A stretch of 23,185 nucleotides of DNA from Escherichia coli (GTDB taxonomy: Bacteria > Pseudomonadota > Gammaproteobacteria > Enterobacterales > Enterobacteriaceae): NCBI GenBank assembly GCA_022664555.1, contig GCA_022664555.1_4839.1. The stretch is one strand, 5' to 3'. A model generated the notes under the pieces. It saw only the letters and a program-made list of their open reading frames with translations, was not told the DNA's origin and made no database searches. Numbering within the stretch: position 1 is the stretch's first letter; each line of letters begins with the position of its first letter. Positions 8,987 to 21,722 of the stretch are shown here, piece after piece. A program made the position numbers and the translations under genes.

Positions 8987-9019
8987 AGGGGGAATTATAT
9001 CCCCCTTTGGTTTATTGAA
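8987..9019. terminator. GC hairpin between the DNA polymerase stop and the next gene (terminator or attenuator)
   Basis: AGGGGGA / TCCCCCT stem (8987-8993 / 9000-9006), followed on the plus strand by TTGGTTTATTGAA. The minus-strand U-tract is poor. Confidence 0.4.
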
Positions 9020-12019
9020 TCAACCTTTCTTCTTTTGCATCATGGCAAGAAGGTTCACACGGCGCTTGTGTGACCAGCCGACCACGTCGAGGATAGACTG
9101 AATCGGATCAATGAAGGACTTCTCAAAGGCCGCCTGATAATCCACCCATTTGCCCAGACCAAGCTCCTCGGGGAAGAACTCAGGATATGCAAAGTAATTC
9201 TGGCCGAATGGGTTGCCCGGCTTCAACAACACCATCTGTACCTTATCACCCGACTCGATCATCGGTAGACCCAGATCTTCGTTCTTCTCAACCAGACGGT
9301 TGTAACCCACACAAGCCTTTGCAGCAAAATGAGCACCAGAGATGAACGATCCGTCAGCAGCCACACACTTCTCTATGTCGGACACGCCTGACGCCTTGGC
9401 GATATCGTCTACAGAGAGTTTCATGTACTCCTCTTTGTACTGGGAGATGAGCGTCTGTACTTCCTCTTCGGTGCCGAGTAGGATCTTCTCATAGCACTTG
9501 ACAAGACGCTCACGACACCATTCCGGCGTGGTGGACTTGCGGGCTTCCAGACCTTTGAACTTGATCTTCGGCTTCTCGTACTTGATACCCTCACTGTCGT
9601 ACACGGCCATGGCATACATCTTCTTGGCTCGCCAGACAGCGGCTGACGCAATGACCTCACGCTCCCACACCATGCGCTGTTCAAATCCGTTCATGGTGTT
9701 ACACAGAAGCTGTGCCCACTCATTGGTCTTCGGCTGGTAGTTGTCTTTGATCCATTGGTCGATATTATCAACCATAGCATGATGGTCAGTAACATCAGGC
9801 CACAACTGCTTGACAAGACGCTCAATGCAGATGTAGTTGGAGTCGGTATCCCCTGCGATGACGAAGTCCTGGCCTGTTGTACCACACAGCTTGTTCAGAT
9901 AATCATCGGTGTAACGCTTGTTCCACTTGTTGATCAGCTGACCGGATGTGGTGATGGCTTCGGCAATGTTGAGGTTGAAGTACTCTTTGAACCAGACGTT
10001 TGAGATCGCGCCATAACCTGCGTTCATCAAGATCTTCAGACCTTGCTGTAGGGTATCTTGAGCGACGCCCAGGTCTTCCCACTTCTTCATCACTTCGGTC
10101 AGGGCATCAAGATCAATGTTCTTGTGCTCTTCATACCACTCTGGGTCATAATAGCGAGACTTCATGGCAGACTCAAGATGGAAGTCACCCTTCGACATCT
10201 CTTTACACCAGCCAGCCCACTGCTCATACTTCAGACCCTTAGCTTTCTCTACTTTACGGTCGCTGTAGATACCACGCATGATTTCAGACAGGAACGACAT
10301 CTTCTCGTTGCTGAAGAATTGAACGTTCGGCGTGAACGACACGTTGTAACGGCGCAGGGTTTCAAAGTGGAACTCACCCAGGGCAACCAACTCATCAACA
10401 ACCTGCAGGCGTTCGTCAACCGCACGCAACAGCTTGTCGTGAAGGGCTTTCATCAACCGACGTTTGTGCATCGGCGTTGCCATGTTATTCATCTGAGCAG
10501 CCAGCTCTTCACACATAGCCTCAATGATCTCGCGGCGCTGGTGTTTGTCGCCAACGATAGTCTCTGGACCGAGGTTGTACTGCTGAATGATGTGAGGATA
10601 CAGGGAGTTCAAATCTTCCGAGAAGACCCAGAAGTAGATTCCTGGTGTCACATCCATGACGTATGCACCCTCAAAGTCGGTCGGACCATCGTATACACGC
10701 TGGATCTTAGGCACTACCCCCTTCTCGTACAGGCGATAATAGCACATCGCCAGCCACGGAGCCACAGTGCCCAGACCGTCTTCATAGTTGGACTTGGTGC
10801 GGTACGCAAGGACGAACATCAGCTGGAGCAGACGCAGCTTATGTTCAAGTCGCCATACCAGCTTAACGTCTTTGATACCATATCGGGTGTGTTTGCAGTA
10901 GTCGTTGAAGTACAGATCAAAGAGCGACTTGCTCTCACTGTAGTCCATCTTCTTCTCACCCAGCTCACAATACGCAATCCAGTCAAGAGAGTAGCGTTCA
11001 CGGGTGGTGTACGTGTGTTTCTTGTAGATCTGCATATAATCGAGCATAGGACAGCCCACGAACTGATACGTCGTGATATCGCCCTTCTTATCGCGAATGA
11101 TACGCTTCTTAATGATACCCCAAGGACTCAGACGCGACGTTTCAGCCTCACCCAGAACCTGATTCATGCGCTCAACAAGATAAGGGCTATCAAACGTCTC
11201 AATGTTCCAGCCAGTCCATCCGTCGAACTGACGCTCCGACCAGAAGTCTAGGAACGAGCGCAGCAGATCTTGTTCGGTGGTGAACTCCTGATAAACAACC
11301 TCAAGGCCGCCGATCTCTTTGTCTTCGGTGTCGTATGCGAATTTGTTACGATCTTTGGCACAGGGCATACCCCAGACCATGAACTTATTGGTCGCCATGT
11401 CCTGAAGCTGGATCAGGGTAATGGGGAACGCCGCATTCATGTCTTGGGTGATCTTACCGTTGCTGTCAATGATAGGGAACTTATCAGTGACGTTGTTGCT
11501 GATAAAGGAACTGGGAAAGTGCTCACGGACAAAATCATGGTTGGCCAGAACTTGTTTATGGAAGCGGCGAATGCGCGCCTCATTTCCTTTGAACGTCTGC
11601 TGCTCAATGGTTGGGTGAGGGAATGGACCTTTGGTCATCTTTCCATCTTTCCACCCGGCGGAGAACACTTCGATATCGAGGTTAGCAATATGGATGTTGG
11701 AATAATCCGGCTCAATCTTTCCGGGAAAGCTATGGGCAATGAACTGGTATGCATAATCGGTCTGCCCGTAAATGGCAGCACCCTGGACTTCCTTGTACTC
11801 TTCAAGATAGTTGTCAGCGTCACGCATGGAAGGGAACTGCTTGGCTACCAGGGGTTCATTGAGAAGGCCGACCTTTTCAACATTTGAATAGTCAGCCGTG
11901 GGTAAATAGAGAGTGGGTTCGAATTTCTTTTTCAACAGACGGCGATTACCCATGTCATCTGCAATTCGAATCAACAGGTCATTGCCCCTGCGGGCAACGT
12001 TCGTATAGAAAACGGTCAT
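9020..12019 (-). CDS. 43: family-B DNA polymerase, T4 gp43-like (999 aa)
   Basis: 3-kb track ORF. Exo I motif (ANLDIEVF), polymerase motif A (SEDLNSLYPHII) and motif C (IAGDTDSNYI). The N-terminus (FY...QFPSMRDA) resembles T4/RB69 gp43 as recalled. GGAG SD 6 nt before the ATG at 12019. Confidence 0.95.
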   Translation of the reverse strand: MTVFYTNVARRGNDLLIRIADDMGNRRLLKKKFEPTLYLPTADYSNVEKVGLLNEPLVAKQFPSMRDADNYLEEYKEVQGAAIYGQTDYAYQFIAHSFPGKIEPDYSNIHIANLDIEVFSAGWKDGKMTKGPFPHPTIEQQTFKGNEARIRRFHKQVLANHDFVREHFPSSFISNNVTDKFPIIDSNGKITQDMNAAFPITLIQLQDMATNKFMVWGMPCAKDRNKFAYDTEDKEIGGLEVVYQEFTTEQDLLRSFLDFWSERQFDGWTGWNIETFDSPYLVERMNQVLGEAETSRLSPWGIIKKRIIRDKKGDITTYQFVGCPMLDYMQIYKKHTYTTRERYSLDWIAYCELGEKKMDYSESKSLFDLYFNDYCKHTRYGIKDVKLVWRLEHKLRLLQLMFVLAYRTKSNYEDGLGTVAPWLAMCYYRLYEKGVVPKIQRVYDGPTDFEGAYVMDVTPGIYFWVFSEDLNSLYPHIIQQYNLGPETIVGDKHQRREIIEAMCEELAAQMNNMATPMHKRRLMKALHDKLLRAVDERLQVVDELVALGEFHFETLRRYNVSFTPNVQFFSNEKMSFLSEIMRGIYSDRKVEKAKGLKYEQWAGWCKEMSKGDFHLESAMKSRYYDPEWYEEHKNIDLDALTEVMKKWEDLGVAQDTLQQGLKILMNAGYGAISNVWFKEYFNLNIAEAITTSGQLINKWNKRYTDDYLNKLCGTTGQDFVIAGDTDSNYICIERLVKQLWPDVTDHHAMVDNIDQWIKDNYQPKTNEWAQLLCNTMNGFEQRMVWEREVIASAAVWRAKKMYAMAVYDSEGIKYEKPKIKFKGLEARKSTTPEWCRERLVKCYEKILLGTEEEVQTLISQYKEEYMKLSVDDIAKASGVSDIEKCVAADGSFISGAHFAAKACVGYNRLVEKNEDLGLPMIESGDKVQMVLLKPGNPFGQNYFAYPEFFPEELGLGKWVDYQAAFEKSFIDPIQSILDVVGWSHKRRVNLLAMMQKKKG

Positions 12020-12926: not shown

Positions 12927-12943
12927 AATATTTATTGAATAAA

Positions 12944-12972
12944 GTTTACTTCTTCAATAACTGGCGTATACT
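12944..12972 (+). promoter_or_regulatory. sigma70/T4-early-like promoter candidate for CDS 13022..13579
   Basis: GTTTAC (12944-12949), 17-bp spacer, TATACT (12967-12972). AT-rich upstream region containing the palindrome TTTATTGAATAAA (12931-12943). Transcription start would be about 40 nt before the ATG. Confidence 0.4.
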
Positions 12973-14101: not shown

Positions 14102-14212
14102 TATGGGGTATTTAGGCTTCCCGCTTGGCGAGGCCTGGTTTGTACAGGGCACCTCTAGGAAATATTGGAGGAAGGTTTTCATAGATACCCCACACGGATT
14201 GTATGGGGTATT
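14102..14212 (-). promoter_or_regulatory. intergenic array of ATACCCC(A) repeats, with a late-promoter-like CTAAATAC
   Basis: On the minus strand AATACCCCATA occurs twice (plus 14102-14113 and 14202-14212), with an inverted copy (plus 14185-14194) that forms an 8-bp hairpin ATACCCCA / TGGGGTAT (14185-14192 / 14203-14210). The proximal copy reads CTAAATACCCCATAT about 30 nt upstream of the ATG at 14076. Confidence 0.35.
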
Positions 14213-16512: not shown

Positions 16513-16601
16513 TGGCGGAAGGTGAAGGATTCGAACCTTCGGGGGCTAAAAGCCCCACTCGATTAGCAATCGAGTCCCTTAAACCTCTCGGGCAACCTTC
16601 C
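16513..16601 (-). tRNA. tRNA-Ser (anticodon GCU), class II with long variable arm, CCA encoded
   Basis: Reverse complement folds by hand into a cloverleaf: acceptor GGAAGGT/ACCTTCC (7 bp perfect), anticodon stem CTCGA/TCGAG with loop TTGCTAA, variable arm GGGGC-TTTTA-GCCCC, T-arm GAAGG-TTCGAAT-CCTTC, discriminator G, CCA. Confidence 0.9.
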
Positions 16602-16821: not shown

Positions 16822-16898
16822 TGGTGATCCTGGTTGGATTTGAACCAACGACCAATGAATTATGAGTTCACTGCTCTAACCGACTGAGCTACAGGACC
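16822..16898 (-). tRNA. tRNA with CAU anticodon (elongator Met, or Ile2 if lysidine-modified), CCA encoded
   Basis: Reverse complement: acceptor GGTCCTG/CAGGATC, D-arm GCTC-AGTCGGTTA-GAGC, anticodon stem GTGAA/TTCAT with loop CTCATAA, T-arm GTTGG-TTCAAAT-CCAAC, discriminator A, CCA. G1-C72 pair argues against an initiator. Confidence 0.88.
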
Positions 16899-17802
16899 AA
16901 ATTATTGTGTGACCAACCAAGGACTGTCAACCCTTTATCCCGTTTGTGCATGATCAGTTCATGCAGGCCTCTTTGTGCTGCCTCACGGCATGCGCTTCTG
17001 TTGGTCATTGGCTTACACTGTGGCCTCACAACAGGCGTTTATTTTTCCAGGGCTTTCCACTTGCAAGTCTTGACCATACAGGGATACGGGCTTACAAGAT
17101 CGGGTTGGACACAACTTTGATGGCTCTGGTATTAAAGATCCCGCGTCACCCATAGACATGGTTTATAAATCCAGAGCCATCAAAGTTGCAACCAATGTCG
17201 CAACTCGCAGCTTCCATGCAGAAGAAACTTGTCCTCTAACGCTCGGACCAAACGAGGCTGGCTGGTTGATTCAGAGCCGCTGGTTGCTCCAGCAAGCATG
17301 GGTTGATAGCCCGGCAACATAGAATCACCCAAAGTTGAAGAACACTCAGTGGTACAAGCCAGGGATACCAATTTCAGGTCCTTTGCGAGTTCTTTAAATG
17401 CTCTTCATTTTGTGAACTTGAGAATACTACGCCTGTCTCGGGTTTCCCCTTAGTTCGGCCTCCCAGTCCTCGCCGCGCCGGGTAGCTAACCCTGATGGCT
17501 CGTCTGCTACTGAGTTCTTCTTGGTGCCCACCAGTGTCCGGAATGTGTAGGCATCGCAATCTGCAAGGCATGGTCTATTTCACCCAATGCTCTCTCAAGT
17601 TCACAAATCGAAGTGCCCTGACTCAACAGTATAGCCCAATATGCTGTTATCGTCCACCGGATTGGCCACCCACTTCGTAGATCAACCTTTGGGTTTAAGA
17701 TAAATTGTCAAGGCACTTCGATTTGTGTGCCCTTCACCTGCCAGGGATCAGGGCTGATGGCAAGACTTCGCTCACATCTTTCAAGATACTCGTGAGAATA
17801 TC

Positions 17803-17830
17803 CTCAAAGATGTGGGGCCGTTTTTAGGAG
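17803..17830 (-). pseudogene. tRNA 3'-end fragment (T-arm + acceptor 3' strand + CCA), no anticodon arm found
   Basis: Minus strand reads TTGGG-TTCGACT-CCTAA-AAACGGC-C-CCA, the same layout as the two intact tRNAs. No complementary 5' acceptor (GCCGTTT-like) or anticodon stem-loop could be found 60-100 nt upstream. Confidence 0.35.
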
Positions 17831-18803
17831 TCGAACCCAAATGCTTGGCCAGCGCTGACCTTACATCCCATCTGACTTAGGCAACCCACTCCCAGCCCCA
17901 CAACACTCACTACGGTTAAGATTATTGCGTATGTTGTATGGTCTTGCTGGTCACAACTGAAAGGGCACTTAACAGAAGATAGGTCTGATTGCCTCGGATG
18001 ATTTCTCAGTAGCCTAAATGCCCTTACATGTTGTGTGCCCATTATTAATCACAGCGGGCCACTGCGCCGAATTTGGTGATGAGGAATCGGAAGACCTCAC
18101 TGACTTATAGGCTGTTACGCCGCCATCAGAACTTCGGAATCATTAGCAGTTATTTGCTTGGTCAGTTTCTAAAAACCCGCAAAGTCACGCACAACGAAAA
18201 CGAAAACCTGTTTGAGCACAAGACACCATGTCCTGGGTTCACATCGAAGTGTTTGTCTAATGCCCAAACAGCTTTTCGCTTCAGTGGGTTAACTATACTT
18301 TGTAACCCGTTATTGATAAAACCTTTTATTTTTGTTGGCGAGGGTATCACCATCGATTTACCGGAACTTACGCATCCGGCCTCGCCTGTTGGTGATCCTT
18401 CGAATCCGGGAAGATCAGTAGGAACTATGAATCAAGTTAATTCAACCAACAGGAACCTTGTTGCCCTTTGACGCAACATTATGAACCCTCTATGGAAGAC
18501 TCATAATGTTGTGGCGTGATGGAGATTAGCGCCCCCGACCTCCCCTTATACGTTGGTGTCGACTTGCCAACAGGGTGCTCTCTGATTCTGAGCTAATCAC
18601 GCTACAACAGGGAGTTTCGTTCTCCGACGGTCAGTGCGTCCACCGACACCAGCGAGGTTGATATTACGCCTCTATTCGTCACGGTGCCCTGAGACTGGGC
18701 TTTCCTGGTTTCGGGTTCCAGCCCTACTCCCACCGCGCTATTCGCCTCGTGTTTAATACTTTACTACAGCCCAGCTAATTTGAAAAGTCCTCTCCTCTTT
18801 GAG

Positions 18804-18950
18804 CTACACTGCCCACAGCAGTGCGGGCGAACCTTCGCACAAAACCGGATGCGCCGAAGTGGGCGACTGTTTACCGGACTGATCGGGTAGACCCAGGAGA
18901 GTAAAGGTAATCCCGATCAGGAGGATGAGGAGTAACATCATGTAAAACAT
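18804..18950 (-). CDS. small membrane protein (48 aa)
   Basis: Hand-translated ORF below the track cutoff: MFYMMLLLILLIGITFTLLGLPDQSGKQSPTSAHPVLCEGSPALLWAV. ATG at 18950-18948 with a strong GGAAGGGAGGGAA SD 4 nt upstream; TAG at 18806-18804. One N-terminal TM helix. Confidence 0.45.
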   Translation of the reverse strand: MFYMMLLLILLIGITFTLLGLPDQSGKQSPTSAHPVLCEGSPALLWAV

Positions 18951-19007
18951 AGTGTTCCCTCCCTTCCATGCAACTAACTTTACTGCAATTATTTATTGAA
19001 TAAAGCG

Positions 19008-19577
19008 TTATTTTAACACTTCTAACTTCACAATACGACGCAGAAGGTAAACATATTCGCCAGCAGCTTCATGCGTCATATAATGGGTAGAAGGTGTGGA
19101 ATGAGTGTTCTGGGTTTCTTTTAATCCAACACGTTCTGCCCAACCATTAATAGAGTTCCCATAGAAACCGATAATCGCACCAAAATAAATGCGCCCGCTT
19201 TCTGGCTCTAAAACATAGTTGACAGTGAAGCAAATGTCAGAACGAATAGACTCCAGTTTCATACCAACACGACCTTCAGAGAATTCGTTACGAACATATA
19301 AATGACGGAAGCGATCGCGCCGTGCTTGTGATGATTCTTCCAATTCTTGTCGAAGTGAAGAAGTTATGTCAATATTAAATGAAAATGTTGGATTTCGTAA
19401 ATCAGAACGAGCCAACTCTAAGGCAGATTCAATAACGCGGCGGAAATTGATACTTTTACCTGTCAGGCGTTTCACTTCATCGGTGATTGTTTCAAAAGGG
19501 ATTTTCGTGGCGCGTTCCCCTTCGTATTTTGCTAACAAAGGAATAATGTGTTTCATGATTGCTGTGTTAATGTGCAT
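19008..19577 (-). CDS. hypothetical protein in an AT-rich islet (189 aa)
   Basis: Track ORF; ATG at 19577 with GAGG SD about 7 nt upstream. Visibly lower GC and different codon choice from the surrounding genes. No motif I can assign (no GIY-YIG, HNH, Walker or HAD signature). Confidence 0.6.
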   Translation of the reverse strand: MHINTAIMKHIIPLLAKYEGERATKIPFETITDEVKRLTGKSINFRRVIESALELARSDLRNPTFSFNIDITSSLRQELEESSQARRDRFRHLYVRNEFSEGRVGMKLESIRSDICFTVNYVLEPESGRIYFGAIIGFYGNSINGWAERVGLKETQNTHSTPSTHYMTHEAAGEYVYLLRRIVKLEVLK

Positions 19578-19774
19578 TCCGGAGCCTCACTGGATTGATT
19601 AAATGTCTCCGTTATTATATTGGGAGTATGTTTATTGAATATAAACACAGGAATGGCCAATAAAACAATGACAGTGATTATTAATAGGTAAAAACTACTT
19701 TTCTACAACATCAAGAAACTGTATCCTAACGCAGTGCCCTTCGAGTTGTGAGTGTCAACGAACAACGAGAAGCA

Positions 19775-19852
19775 GCCTCCATGGCTGTGGAATGGTGCTG
19801 CCCGCACAGGGCGGTGTTACGAGCGAGGGCGTCAGCCCCCTCGCGAGTTATA
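19775..19852 (+). other. cluster of three GC-rich hairpins upstream of the baseplate operon
   Basis: CAGCC-TCCAT-GGCTG; CTGCCC-GCACA-GGGCGG (one G-T pair); GCGAGGG-CGTCAGCC-CCCTCGC. All lie within about 80 nt in a non-coding stretch; none has a U-tract. Confidence 0.35.
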
Positions 19853-19895
19853 TTCGAATAAATTAAACGCGCGCGAGCCGTTTTGATTCCCGTTG

Positions 19896-19903
19896 GCTAA
19901 ATA
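19896..19903 (+). promoter_or_regulatory. late-promoter-like CTAAATAT upstream of the gp6-like gene
   Basis: CTAAATAT lies 41 nt upstream of the ATG at 19944 and resembles the T4 late promoter core TATAAATA. The same CTAAATA core precedes CDS 13618..14076 on the minus strand. Confidence 0.3.
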
Positions 19904-19943
19904 TCTTCAACACCATATTCAAACTCAGGTGATGGAGATTATC

Positions 19944-21722
19944 ATGGCCACGCAAACAGTCCCTTCACTCGATGTCAGGGCTTTCGAGTATCTTATCAAG
20001 AAGCGCATGAAAGCTGATCCAACTTTCAAGGATTATGACTTTGAAGGTTCTGGTCTCAGTGCAATCGTGCGTATCTTGGCCTCGGATGCCAACTCTATCG
20101 GGTTCATGCAGAACATGCTGAATGGCGAAAGCCATCTTCACTCTGCTCAACAGCGTTCTAATGTCGGTCTTGCGGCCGGGTTCTTGTCGTACACCCCTCA
20201 TAACTACCAGGCGGCGTACCTGTACGCAAACGTCACAGTCACTCCATATGACGCCAGCACGGCTCCGGACACGATTATAATGGATCGCCGCGCGATGTTC
20301 ATTGGGGCGAAGGATGGCAAATCCTACAACTTCACGGTTGAACAACCTGTGAGTGCCTCTCTTGTAGACGGCTCTTACAAGTTCGAGAACATCAAACTCA
20401 TACAGGGTAACTGGCTGTACAAGTCCTATGATGTGGAAGGCAGCGCGATCTCTACCTATGTGATCCCATCTTCTTCCGTGGACATCGACCATATGGTGGT
20501 GCAGGTGCAGGAATCTGAGACATCTGACGTGCGGTCTACCTTCTCACGATACGTAAGCCCGTTCGATTTGAGCCAGTATGCGCAACTTTACTTCGTTGAG
20601 CTGGGGTTGGACGGGATGTACACGTTCGAATTCGGTGATGGGTATATCTGTAAGCGAGTAGAAGACGGGAACGTCGTGTACCTCCAGTATCTGGAGACAG
20701 CTGGTGCAGACGGCAATGACATCACTGCCTTGTCCTCCGCGTCTTCCATCGGGGGATTCAACCTTGTAGAAGTTGAGCTGGTCTCAGAACGTTCTTCCTG
20801 TGGTGCGGACCCAGAGAGCATTGAGGACATCAAGCGCCTTGCTCCGCTGGCTTATCAGGCTGAGGGTGCGGCAGTGGCCGAAGTCGATTATGCTGTGTTG
20901 ACCGAGCGTCTGTTCTCCAACGTCTCCCGCGCCAAAGCATATGGCGGCGACACGCTCTCTCCGCCCGACTCCGGATACGTTTACATTGCTGTGATACCTT
21001 CTGTTGGTGAGGCGCTCTCGGACGCTGAGAAGGCAGATATCGTGGCGACGTTGGACAAGTATAATGTGGGCACGATCACACCCAAGATTGTCGACGCTGA
21101 ACTGACTTATGTTGATGTCACCACCCGCGTGTTCTGGGATCCGACTTCCACGACCTACACCGAAGAGCAGTTGAAGACAGTCGTGAAGAACGGTGTTGTC
21201 AACTGGGGCTTGGGGAACCTAGAAGGATTCGACGAACTGTTCGATAAAGAGCAGTTACAGTCGGACATCACAGACATGGACAGATCGATAGTGTCAAACA
21301 TCACTTCTGTGAAGTATAAGCGCCATTTCAAGCCAGACTATGGGGTACTGGACAGCTTCACGTTCGATTATGGGCGCTCGATTGCATCTGGTTCTGTGCG
21401 TATCAGTGGGTTTAAGCCGCTTCCGGCCGAGGTCGAATTCACTTACTACATACGCGACGTCAGTGGTGTCCTGAATATGTACAAGGTGAGTACAACAGAC
21501 ACGACCAAGGAATATCTGGTACAAGCTGTTGGAACGGTTGAATATGTGAATGGCGTTGTTGAACTCCAGCGCATCACAGTATCCAACAACAACACCCAGG
21601 GAGAGAAAATAATCGAGTCTCCAGACGGTCTTGACCAGAACATTCAGGCCACACAGAATCAGGTGCTCCGCATTGGTGCTGTAACTGTGGAGCCGGAGGT
21701 GCGTTATGTCCAAAGATCTTAA
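19944..21722 (+). CDS. 6: baseplate wedge protein, T4 gp6-like / P2 gpJ-like (592 aa)
   Basis: Track ORF 19893..21722 (TTG start) trimmed to the ATG at 19944 with GGAGA SD 5 nt upstream. The N-terminal region DPTFKDYDFEGSGLSAIVRILASDANSIGFMQNM resembles T4 gp6 (EFLDYDFEGSRLNVLCDLLAYNTLYIQQFGN) as recalled. Confidence 0.8.
   Translation: MATQTVPSLDVRAFEYLIKKRMKADPTFKDYDFEGSGLSAIVRILASDANSIGFMQNMLNGESHLHSAQQRSNVGLAAGFLSYTPHNYQAAYLYANVTVTPYDASTAPDTIIMDRRAMFIGAKDGKSYNFTVEQPVSASLVDGSYKFENIKLIQGNWLYKSYDVEGSAISTYVIPSSSVDIDHMVVQVQESETSDVRSTFSRYVSPFDLSQYAQLYFVELGLDGMYTFEFGDGYICKRVEDGNVVYLQYLETAGADGNDITALSSASSIGGFNLVEVELVSERSSCGADPESIEDIKRLAPLAYQAEGAAVAEVDYAVLTERLFSNVSRAKAYGGDTLSPPDSGYVYIAVIPSVGEALSDAEKADIVATLDKYNVGTITPKIVDAELTYVDVTTRVFWDPTSTTYTEEQLKTVVKNGVVNWGLGNLEGFDELFDKEQLQSDITDMDRSIVSNITSVKYKRHFKPDYGVLDSFTFDYGRSIASGSVRISGFKPLPAEVEFTYYIRDVSGVLNMYKVSTTDTTKEYLVQAVGTVEYVNGVVELQRITVSNNNTQGEKIIESPDGLDQNIQATQNQVLRIGAVTVEPEVRYVQRS

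Follow-up and report, generated by a model that had tools for sequence, protein, structure and literature searches.

RNA hairpins that bring about processive antitermination stand at the heads of long operons in phage lambda (nutL and nutR, with boxB) and in HK022 (putL and putR). Hairpins in a similar position are described here from a 23,185-nucleotide stretch of DNA (GenBank assembly GCA_022664555.1, contig GCA_022664555.1_4839.1, filed under Escherichia coli; hereafter the window), which comes from an Ackermannviridae (ViI-like) phage. Four of them, P1 to P4, lie within the 366-bp divergent intergenic region between a minus-strand open reading frame (ORF) of 189 amino acids (aa; 19008-19577) and the ATG (19944) of the baseplate-wedge gene gp6, and a sister cassette is found upstream of the sliding-clamp gene gp45. 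The cassette is most likely an undescribed regulatory RNA/promoter cassette with a putative function, and it is tentatively proposed, with a probability of roughly 40%, that the hairpins belong to a cis-regulatory cassette that extends across the family and would be read as structured, promoter-proximal RNA of the plus strand at the head of the two operons.

As in the nut and put systems, there are two paralogous and conserved hairpin elements per genome, which would be promoter-proximal, upstream of terminator-like hairpins; the element differs in having no sequence or structure similarity to those sites (no Rfam match), and in that its promoter, its terminators and any N-like factor are putative. 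Another example of hairpins near transcript starts is given by the 5' stabiliser stem-loops, such as the ompA 5' hairpin, which need no sequence conservation. The element is like these in Vibrio phage D533, in the viral contig IMGVR_UViG_3300033074_000227 and in the gp45 copy, where a hairpin lies a few nucleotides (nt) from the predicted transcript 5' end, and unlike them in that neither its loops nor its non-canonical pairs vary and the first hairpin is followed by three more. Tandem sheared G.A pairs and GNA-triloop mini-hairpins (GCGAAGC), with the (Py)GA(Pu) motif, are generic stability motifs described mainly in DNA oligonucleotides, and the core of P1 and P4, Y-GA-GC-GAA-GC-GA-R, contains exactly these motifs, although they define no biological family or function. 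The T4 origins oriF (uvsY) and oriG (gene 34) consist of a MotA-dependent promoter and an unwinding element of ~50 bp, with no conserved hairpins. The element shares with them a putative non-late promoter in or next to late-gene territory, two elements per genome and AT-rich DNA downstream, whereas conserved hairpins are present only in the element, and MotA and AsiA are lacking in this group of phages according to the description of CBA120 (PMC3184105).

The PeSLs of T4-like phages are cassettes that combine an early promoter with a stem-loop and that mediate shuffling (Arbiol et al., 2010, PMC2839356; Comeau et al., 2014, PMC4122927). With these the element has in common that it is a composite intergenic cassette, with AT-rich sequence upstream, a box resembling a promoter and, next to a promoter-like hexamer (12 nt away at gp6, 2 nt at gp45), a stable stem-loop that contains G.U pairs, together with nucleotide-level conservation between phages and a coincidence with recombination junctions, and D533 has the full layout of promoter, hairpin, Shine-Dalgarno (SD) sequence and ATG. 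However, PeSLs are many and lie at ORFans in hyperplastic regions, whereas the element has two copies and heads core operons (gp6, gp45). Its promoter is far from consensus in the enteric phages, where TTTTCT-17-TATCCT has 7/12 sigma-70 consensus matches, it has four hairpins with a tandem-G.A module as opposed to a polyG/polyC stem, and a separate late promoter lies between its hairpins and gp6. A PeSL has its SD and start codon at the 3' end of a cassette of ~100 bp, which in the element is seen only in the gp5-like copy of D533; in the window the gp6 ATG is 172 nt past the end of P1, with the late promoter in between. Because copy number, location relative to ORFans and start-codon distance differ in this way, the element is a PeSL-like variant and not a member of the PeSLs.

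Conservation, structure and strand bias at gp6

The intergenic region matches 271 phage records, all of them Ackermannviridae-like, whose hosts are Salmonella, Klebsiella, Escherichia, Dickeya, Shigella, Enterobacter and Serratia. Over positions 19400-20200, the window has ~99% identity with the Escherichia phages vB_EcoM-RPN242 and AV101, and 87-92% with many Kutterviruses. When ten phages of four genera (Kuttervirus, Agtrevirus, Limestonevirus and Taipeivirus) are aligned, an almost invariant block extends from TTATTAATAGG (19678) to GGCGGUGUUACGAGCG (~19826), where identity to the window is 0.90 at 19730-19759 and 0.96 at 19760-19789, as opposed to 0.44 at 19640-19669 and 0.42 at 19850-19879 outside the block (adjacent non-coding sequence 42-57%, flanking coding sequence 0.54-0.91). 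The element thus falls inside the range 19650-19943 given in the preliminary description of this locus, which had the hairpins begin at 19775; conservation starts well before that, at ~19678, and P1 had been missed. The features of the region are the following.

19678-19706, plus strand: upstream box TTATTAATAGGTAAAAACTACTTTTCTAC (A-tract and CTTTTCT), almost invariant in the alignment.
19718-19727, plus strand: ACTGTATCCT, with a -10-like TATCCT at 19722-19727 that is kept as TATnnT in four genera.
19739-19772, plus strand: hairpin P1, -11.6 kcal/mol, z -2.4; the best-conserved part and the element's core, with a paralog upstream of gp45.
19772-19788, plus strand: hairpin P2, GCAGCC/UCCAU/GGCUGU, -9.3 kcal/mol, z -3.4; first of the three hairpins noted earlier.
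19797-19815, plus strand: hairpin P3, GCUGCCC/GCACA/GGGCGGU, -12.1 kcal/mol, z -2.9; the second noted earlier.
19819-19848, plus strand: hairpin P4, core GCGAGGG..CCCUCGC, -14.5 kcal/mol, z -2.75; the third noted earlier.
19849-19867, no strand assigned: AT-rich spacer with the 8-nt palindrome ATTCGAAT (19852-19859), poorly conserved.
19868-19880, no strand assigned: GC box CGCGCGCGAGCCG, containing the CGCGCGCG run at 19868-19875; its core GCGCG(A/C)G is present in all genera, and a similar box lies upstream of gp45.
19897-19905, plus strand: late-promoter-like motif CTAAATATC, 41 nt 5' of the gp6 ATG; the initial transcribed region after it is invariant.
19934-19946, plus strand: SD GGAG (19934-19937) and gp6 start codon (19944-19946), with a mosaic crossover just downstream (19953-19972).
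19008-19577, minus strand: divergent neighbour, the 189-aa ORF, in PHROG 3788 (a group with no assigned function); part of the same horizontally exchanged module as the intergenic region.

The GC-rich hairpins first seen by eye, P2 to P4, are real, each folding better than its shuffles, and the contrast with AT-rich surroundings is confirmed by a GC content of 0.63 at 19750-19849 vs 0.28-0.36 at 19600-19749. The CGCGCGCG run is also where it was said to be, and so is the palindrome, except that the base before it is T and not A. P1 is laid out as CUUC / GA / GUUGU / GA / GU / GUCA loop / AC / GA / ACAAC / GA / GAAG, which gives helices of 4, 5 and 2 bp, separated by two tandem G.A internal loops and capped by a tetraloop. 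The full form of P4 is AC / GA / GC-GAGGG..CCCUC-GC / GA / GU, and it has the GA-GC...GC-GA core in common with P1. This long form occurs in Kuttervirus-type sequence only; the other genera and some Kutterviruses have a mini-hairpin, GAGCGAAGCGAG or GAGCGUAGCGAG. In the window P4 has a weak U-rich tail, GAGUUAUAUU, and is terminator-like by a promoter/terminator scan. The earlier statement that none of its three hairpins has a U-tract therefore applies to P2 and P3 and not to P4, whereas its companion, that these are unlikely to be simple terminators, stands, since the genes on either side diverge and a weak U tail is present on one hairpin only. Among the relatives, the basal pair of P2 switches between G.U and G-C, and the loop of P3 has indels of 1-2 nt; the P2 loop, CCUCCAU, resembles an anti-SD sequence.

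These structures are biased towards one strand. The 141-nt stretch has a folding z of -2.24 on the plus strand (2/200 shuffles as good) and of -0.35 on the minus strand, and P1 read on the minus strand has -6.0 kcal/mol and z -0.7. RNAalifold, with 13 distinct sequences, recovered P1, P2 and P3 with 28 pairs, and changes on both sides that keep pairing were found at 19742/19769 (C-G in 7, U-A in 6) and at 19803/19809, the apical pair of P3 (U-A in 9, C-G in 4). When the gp45 paralogs are added to P1, 99% of cells are paired and double changes occur at four pairs, where the inner pair is U-A in 5, C-G in 3 and A-U in 1; none of 500 shuffles reached the observed values, and slid registers were 22-62% paired. 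All one-sided changes are switches between G.U and Watson-Crick pairs on the plus strand, which on the minus strand would give A.C. The folding asymmetry and this G.U pattern favour a plus-strand single-stranded nucleic acid, most simply RNA. The test named in the preliminary description, a comparison of relatives for conservation and compensatory changes, thus gives both, and the observation made there is real and its interpretation partly supported. A long-range helix between 19730-19732 and 19823-25, which would form a cloverleaf, is also predicted by RNAalifold; it shows only one-sided changes, competes with P4 and may lie upstream of the start site.

The sister cassette at gp45 and a candidate pre-late transcript

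A second occurrence of the 26-nt P1 string is present in an Ag3-like genome, in the divergent intergenic region upstream of gp45, and this region is conserved in 273 records. Both cassettes have the same order of parts, where a box (TAAAAAYTNCTTTYCT at gp45) is followed 17-18 nt on by a TAnnnT hexamer and then, in turn, by P1, the YGAGCGNAGCGAR module (P4), AT-rich sequence, a GC box and a CTAAAT-like motif ahead of the ribosome-binding site (RBS). The P1 string, the GAGCGNAGCGA module, the upstream box and the GC box are found upstream of gp45 in all genera examined. P2 and P3 are extra in the gp6 copy, between P1 and P4, while the gp45 cassette consists of P1, P4 and a terminator-like hairpin, AAAUGCC-GAAG-GGCAUUU, which was scored as a terminator on the minus strand only. 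The core that P1 and P4 have in common is Y-GA-GY-loop-RC-GA-R, in which the pair beside the G.A loop covaries (C-G, U-A) and the middle base of the triloop varies (GAA, GUA, GCA, GGA) with the closing C-G kept. A degenerate-pattern scan of IMG/VR found exactly two cassette copies per Ackermannviridae genome where both regions were retrieved, and matches in unrelated contigs too. The window holds one copy, as covariance model R1 matches only 19737-19774 and a repeat search gives no further copy. The AT-rich tract that follows P4 measures ~50 nt at gp45 vs ~20 nt (19849-19867) at gp6. In Salmonella phage vB_CECAV_050, the tract upstream of gp45 (retrieved stretch 299-668) has a ~19-nt tandem duplication, TTAATAAAGRTTATTATCT, and the spacer length of the gp45 cassette is therefore polymorphic.

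The position of the hairpins relative to the late promoter is set by the motif CTAAATAYC, a strong candidate for the late-promoter consensus of the Ackermannviridae. This motif is found 28-41 nt 5' of the start codon at 8/9 occurrences in 40 kb of RPN242, mostly at tail-fibre and tail-spike genes, and also precedes a minus-strand gene in the window (14109-14115, minus strand). The gp6 copy, at 19897-19905, is downstream of all four hairpins, and the hairpins are therefore not in the leader of the late gp6 mRNA, which corrects their earlier assignment to the leader of the baseplate operon. In 2011 the late motif was described as unidentified in CBA120 (PMC3184105). In the record of Salmonella phage SPTD1 (OP991882.2), the feature named 'Kuttervirus late gene promoter' is ATCTTCA (2001-2007), the 7 nt right after CTAAATA, and this annotation appears to be offset by 7 nt. 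Because of this offset, the late promoter was placed by the CTAAATAYC census and not by the SPTD1 annotation.

More distant occurrences of the tandem-G.A hairpin have also been found. In Vibrio phage D533, whose gp6 is 38% identical, the hairpin GGGGU-GA-GC-GAA-GC-GA-ACCCC occurs at two places, in the 780-bp region upstream of gp6 and directly before the RBS of a gp5-like gene, and both copies lie 5-13 nt past sigma-70 promoters with 10/12 matches. A related GC-GAA-GC hairpin follows a TATATT hexamer upstream of the D533 gp45. These occurrences tie the tandem-G.A hairpin to predicted transcript 5' ends over a wide evolutionary distance. The contig IMGVR_UViG_3300033074_000227, an unrelated viral contig of 42 kb, has at 1206-1257 a consensus TTGACA-16-TATACT and, 3 nt later, GTTGTGAGCGTTAGCGAACAAC, which matches exactly the P1 found upstream of gp45 in the window's lineage; the ORFs beside it have no family matches.

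In the proposed mechanism, the conserved upstream box and the weak TATnnT hexamer would start a pre-late transcript at ~19734, made by host polymerase and possibly dependent on an activator, and its first ~115 nt would form P1, P2, P3 and P4. The tandem-G.A module (Y-GA-GY-loop-RC-GA-R) of P1 and P4 would serve as a recognition site for a protein or for RNA polymerase, while the dedicated late promoter CTAAATATC downstream would give a late gp6 mRNA free of hairpins. As the shorter sister cassette heads the gp45 clamp operon, the module would mark the pre-late transcripts of both operons and would set their fate, by stability, by attenuation or by read-through past a hairpin or terminator, much as nut/put sites or 5' stabiliser hairpins might do within a PeSL-like cassette. 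The analysis shows the conservation, structure, strand bias and paralogy of the element and its place relative to the late promoter, whereas its transcription, the start of that transcription, the binding of a factor and the resulting effect are inferred.

Several points weigh against this proposal. The candidate pre-late promoter is the 7/12 match mentioned above, with P1 starting 12 nt past its -10-like hexamer, and the scan flags no plus-strand promoter of sigma-70 quality upstream of P1 in the window or in the gp45 copy. In the gp45 copy P1 starts 2 nt past the -10-like hexamer, and a transcript starting from this abutting hexamer would miss the 5' strand of the lower helix of P1. Neither a conserved terminator nor any other defined 3' end is present, P4 being strong only in Kuttervirus-type sequence, and no Rfam family, antiterminator RNAs included, has any likeness to the element. 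Sequence variation is small, and the covarying positions fall into two block 'alleles' common to several genera, where for example C at 19756 co-occurs with GGUGC and CCCGCAYAGGG; such alleles suggest recombination, which could inflate apparent covariation, and an inverted repeat in duplex DNA changes symmetrically in a way that mimics compensatory change. The covariation is also limited because the phage collection steps from ~77% to 38% gp6 identity and has no relatives in between. A literature search found no transcript, transcription start site (TSS) or binding data for any Ackermannviridae phage, and nothing was found on Ackermannviridae or Kuttervirus transcriptomes, TSS maps or non-coding RNAs.

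A more specific version, which is rather unlikely, is that the double tandem-G.A hairpin of P1/P4 is the recognition signal of a new ViI-like control system, acting in nut/put-like antitermination or attenuation or as an R-loop primer. If true, the P1/P4 signal, which would mark where the gp45 (clamp) and gp6 (baseplate/tail-spike) operons begin, would provide the middle-mode regulation that is 'missing' from the description of CBA120, as these phages have no MotA or AsiA. That description states that in these phages the signals for early and middle control are unidentified, as are the promoters at divergent junctions, and it mentions a suggestion of antitermination (PMC3184105). The Ackermannviridae, which include ViI, CBA120, LIMEstone and the Klebsiella Taipeiviruses, are widely used therapy and biocontrol phages, where a two-copy structured cassette at the heads of the clamp and baseplate/tail-spike operons gives a concrete, mutable candidate for pre-late control and a candidate new RNA family.

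Other explanations for the hairpins

The alternative that survives best, though unlikely, is a stand-alone plus-strand small RNA (sRNA) of ~110-120 nt (P1-P4), which was among the possibilities raised in the preliminary description. Such an RNA would start from the upstream box, end or be processed at P4, and act on targets of the host or phage in trans, with the anti-SD-like CCUCC loop of P2 as one possible means. The compact, conserved, non-coding structure with its plus-strand bias is in keeping with this, as is the late promoter of gp6, which separates the element from gp6. P4 of the window and the gp45 hairpin AAAUGCC-GAAG-GGCAUUU are terminator-like, but no 3' end is conserved, since a terminator-like P4 is absent in Agtrevirus, Limestonevirus, Taipeivirus and some Kutterviruses; in addition the gp45 hairpin is scored as a terminator on the minus strand only, the candidate promoter is weak, and the fold of the long transcript leaves the P2 loop unpaired with the gp6 SD. 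Pairing of this loop (CCUCCAU) with the gp6 SD (AUGGAG) was tried as a separate candidate and dropped, as the 6-nt complementarity is unused in the minimum-free-energy fold of the long transcript and the changes seen in Taipeivirus, A>C in the loop and U>C in the SD region, do not compensate each other. A host-derived sequence or host sRNA mimic was also rejected, since 5,426 complete E. coli genomes gave no match at E<=1.

Quite unlikely is a DNA operator, in which a regulator from the phage or the host would bind P1 (and P4) as imperfect inverted repeats of duplex DNA and would sit just past the -10 region of the gp45 and gp6 pre-late promoters, in the manner of lacO1. The arrangement TTGTGAGCG...AACAA, which we take to resemble that of the lac-operator half-sites, is a lead only. 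The motif does lie 2-3 nt past the -10 hexamer in the gp45 copy and in IMGVR_UViG_3300033074_000227 (TTGACA-16-TATACT), its two copies per genome are at operon heads, and symmetric changes in an inverted repeat would mimic covariation. However, in duplex DNA the invariant GA/GA positions lack the symmetry usual of a dimer site, and it is the centre that is conserved, while the arms are free provided that pairing holds (GUUGU/ACAAC vs GGGGU/ACCCC in D533). The one-sided changes all keep G.U on a single strand, the RNA-like pattern is also seen in P2 and P3, and the divergent neighbouring proteins have no DNA-binding domain matches. The divergent neighbour proteins were for a time considered as the cognate regulator and dropped, as Pfam and PHROG are uninformative for the 189-aa protein and for the 125-aa protein upstream of gp45.

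A similarly small chance is given to a PeSL-type architectural cassette, which would insulate transcription units and provide crossover points for exchange, with no specific function of the hairpin RNA. Shuffling is the role described for PeSLs (PMC2839356, PMC4122927), and the window is mosaic (18990-19953 Kuttervirus-like, gp6 Agtrevirus-like), with junctions in conserved regulatory sequence. It is set against this that PeSLs are many-copy cassettes flanking ORFans in hyperplastic regions, as opposed to two copies at core genes; that simple terminators or insulators do not require the near-invariance seen across genera in the loops, G.A pairs and linkers; and that at gp6 there is no co-directional upstream transcription to terminate.

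An origin or primer of the T4 oriF/oriG type is improbable. Here the non-coding transcript of a non-late promoter would form an R-loop in the adjacent AT-rich DNA and prime leading-strand synthesis, and the hairpins would shape or stabilise the primer RNA or form a single-stranded DNA initiation signal. GCGAAGC-type mini-hairpins have reportedly been noted by Hirao et al. as very stable in DNA form and as occurring at phage origins. Two paralogous promoter-proximal non-coding elements per genome, AT-rich tracts after the hairpins (19849-19867, and ~50 nt in the gp45 copy), and the T4-like replication genes and RNase H of these phages are consistent with such an origin; yet there are no iterons or DnaA boxes, the AT-rich spacer at gp6 is only ~20 nt and poorly conserved, the promoter is only a candidate, and MotA and AsiA are lacking, as mentioned above (PMC3184105).

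Ordinary intrinsic terminators, a degenerate tRNA or a small protein gene are hardly credible, for although the scan marks one hairpin as terminator-like, there are tRNA genes 2.8 kb off, a 44-aa GTG ORF spans 19752-19886 and small ORFs are annotated in some records, the divergent flanking genes leave nothing to terminate, P1-P3 have no U tracts, ARAGORN and Rfam give null results and relatives have frame-breaking indels.

Known RNAs, coding potential and the surrounding module

The Rfam/Infernal scan that the preliminary description had proposed finds no known family at the hairpins. Against Rfam 15 at E<=10, the best scores in 19580-19950 are 14.6 and 15.4 bits, vs thresholds of 49.5 and 70, and the gp45-upstream copy has no match in Rfam. 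In the window, ARAGORN and Rfam find only the tRNAs at 16513-16601 and 16822-16898, with no tRNA-like signal at the hairpins, and a tRNA or degenerate tRNA was ruled out on this basis. An intrinsic terminator was rejected as well: only P4 with its tail is flagged, this form is not conserved, and the upstream gene is on the opposite strand.

The sole ORF over the hairpins is the one at 19752-19886, of 44 aa with a GTG start, within which relatives have indels of 1, 2 and 16 nt; as these break the frame, there is no conserved small ORF on either strand. In Salmonella phage SeKF_64 and similar records, small minus-strand hypothetical proteins are annotated across the hairpins (retrieved stretch 1654-1761, 1856-2014). 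Because of the indels among relatives, such gene calls over the hairpin region are probably spurious, which is a warning to annotators of the cassette. The upstream box (19678-19706), when read on the minus strand, has a promoter-like score (TAGAAA-17-AATAAT).

The stretch 18990-19953, which comprises the 189-aa ORF and the entire intergenic region, shares 92-99% identity with Kuttervirus SPTD1 and only 55-77% with an Ag3-like Agtrevirus, and gp6 from ~19960 is 93-99% Agtrevirus-like and 56-84% Kuttervirus-like. A Kuttervirus-like module is thus present in an Agtrevirus-like context. Its left junction is at the TTTATTGAATAAAGCGTTATTTTA motif (18992-19015) and its right junction within the first ~10 gp6 codons (19953-19972), both in conserved regulatory sequence, and the cassette is a conserved crossover point where genera have exchanged tail-spike (host-range) modules. 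Neither the 189-aa protein nor the 125-aa protein upstream of gp45 has an informative Pfam or PHROG function.

In metagenome and metagenome-assembled genome contigs, a P1 string of 25-26 nt (GAGTTGTGAG-loop-CGARCAACGA, usually with a GC-GNA-GC core) occurs in two recurrent bacterial repeat contexts. One is GGGAGAGGGTGGC...GCCGGGTGAGGGG, apparently in Bradyrhizobiaceae-like Alphaproteobacteria, and the other is GTAGGTCGGGTTCAG...CCAACCCGACAT, which has the appearance of repetitive extragenic palindromes (REP-like). These copies score 24-42 bits with model R1, the total of P1-string matches is near a rough chance estimate, and only 2 are found in 596 Gb of reference genomes; the bacterial strings reflect either homology or convergence.

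Between tRNA-Met and the 189-aa ORF, ~2 kb (16900-19008) is free of coding sequences in the annotation of the near-identical RPN242 record, and it holds long inverted repeats at 17105-17134/17166-17195 (83% complementary) and 17602-17622/17707-17727 (95%). A degenerate tRNA after the tRNA cluster is mentioned for CBA120 (PMC3184105). The motif TTTATTGAAT (ATTCAATAAA on the minus strand) is repeated at gene boundaries in the window (9011-9034, 12931-12954, 18992-19015 and 19630-19646), where the copy in the hairpin intergenic region sits upstream of a conserved minus-strand TATAAT, and the motif may be part of phage pre-late promoters or of terminators for minus-strand genes.

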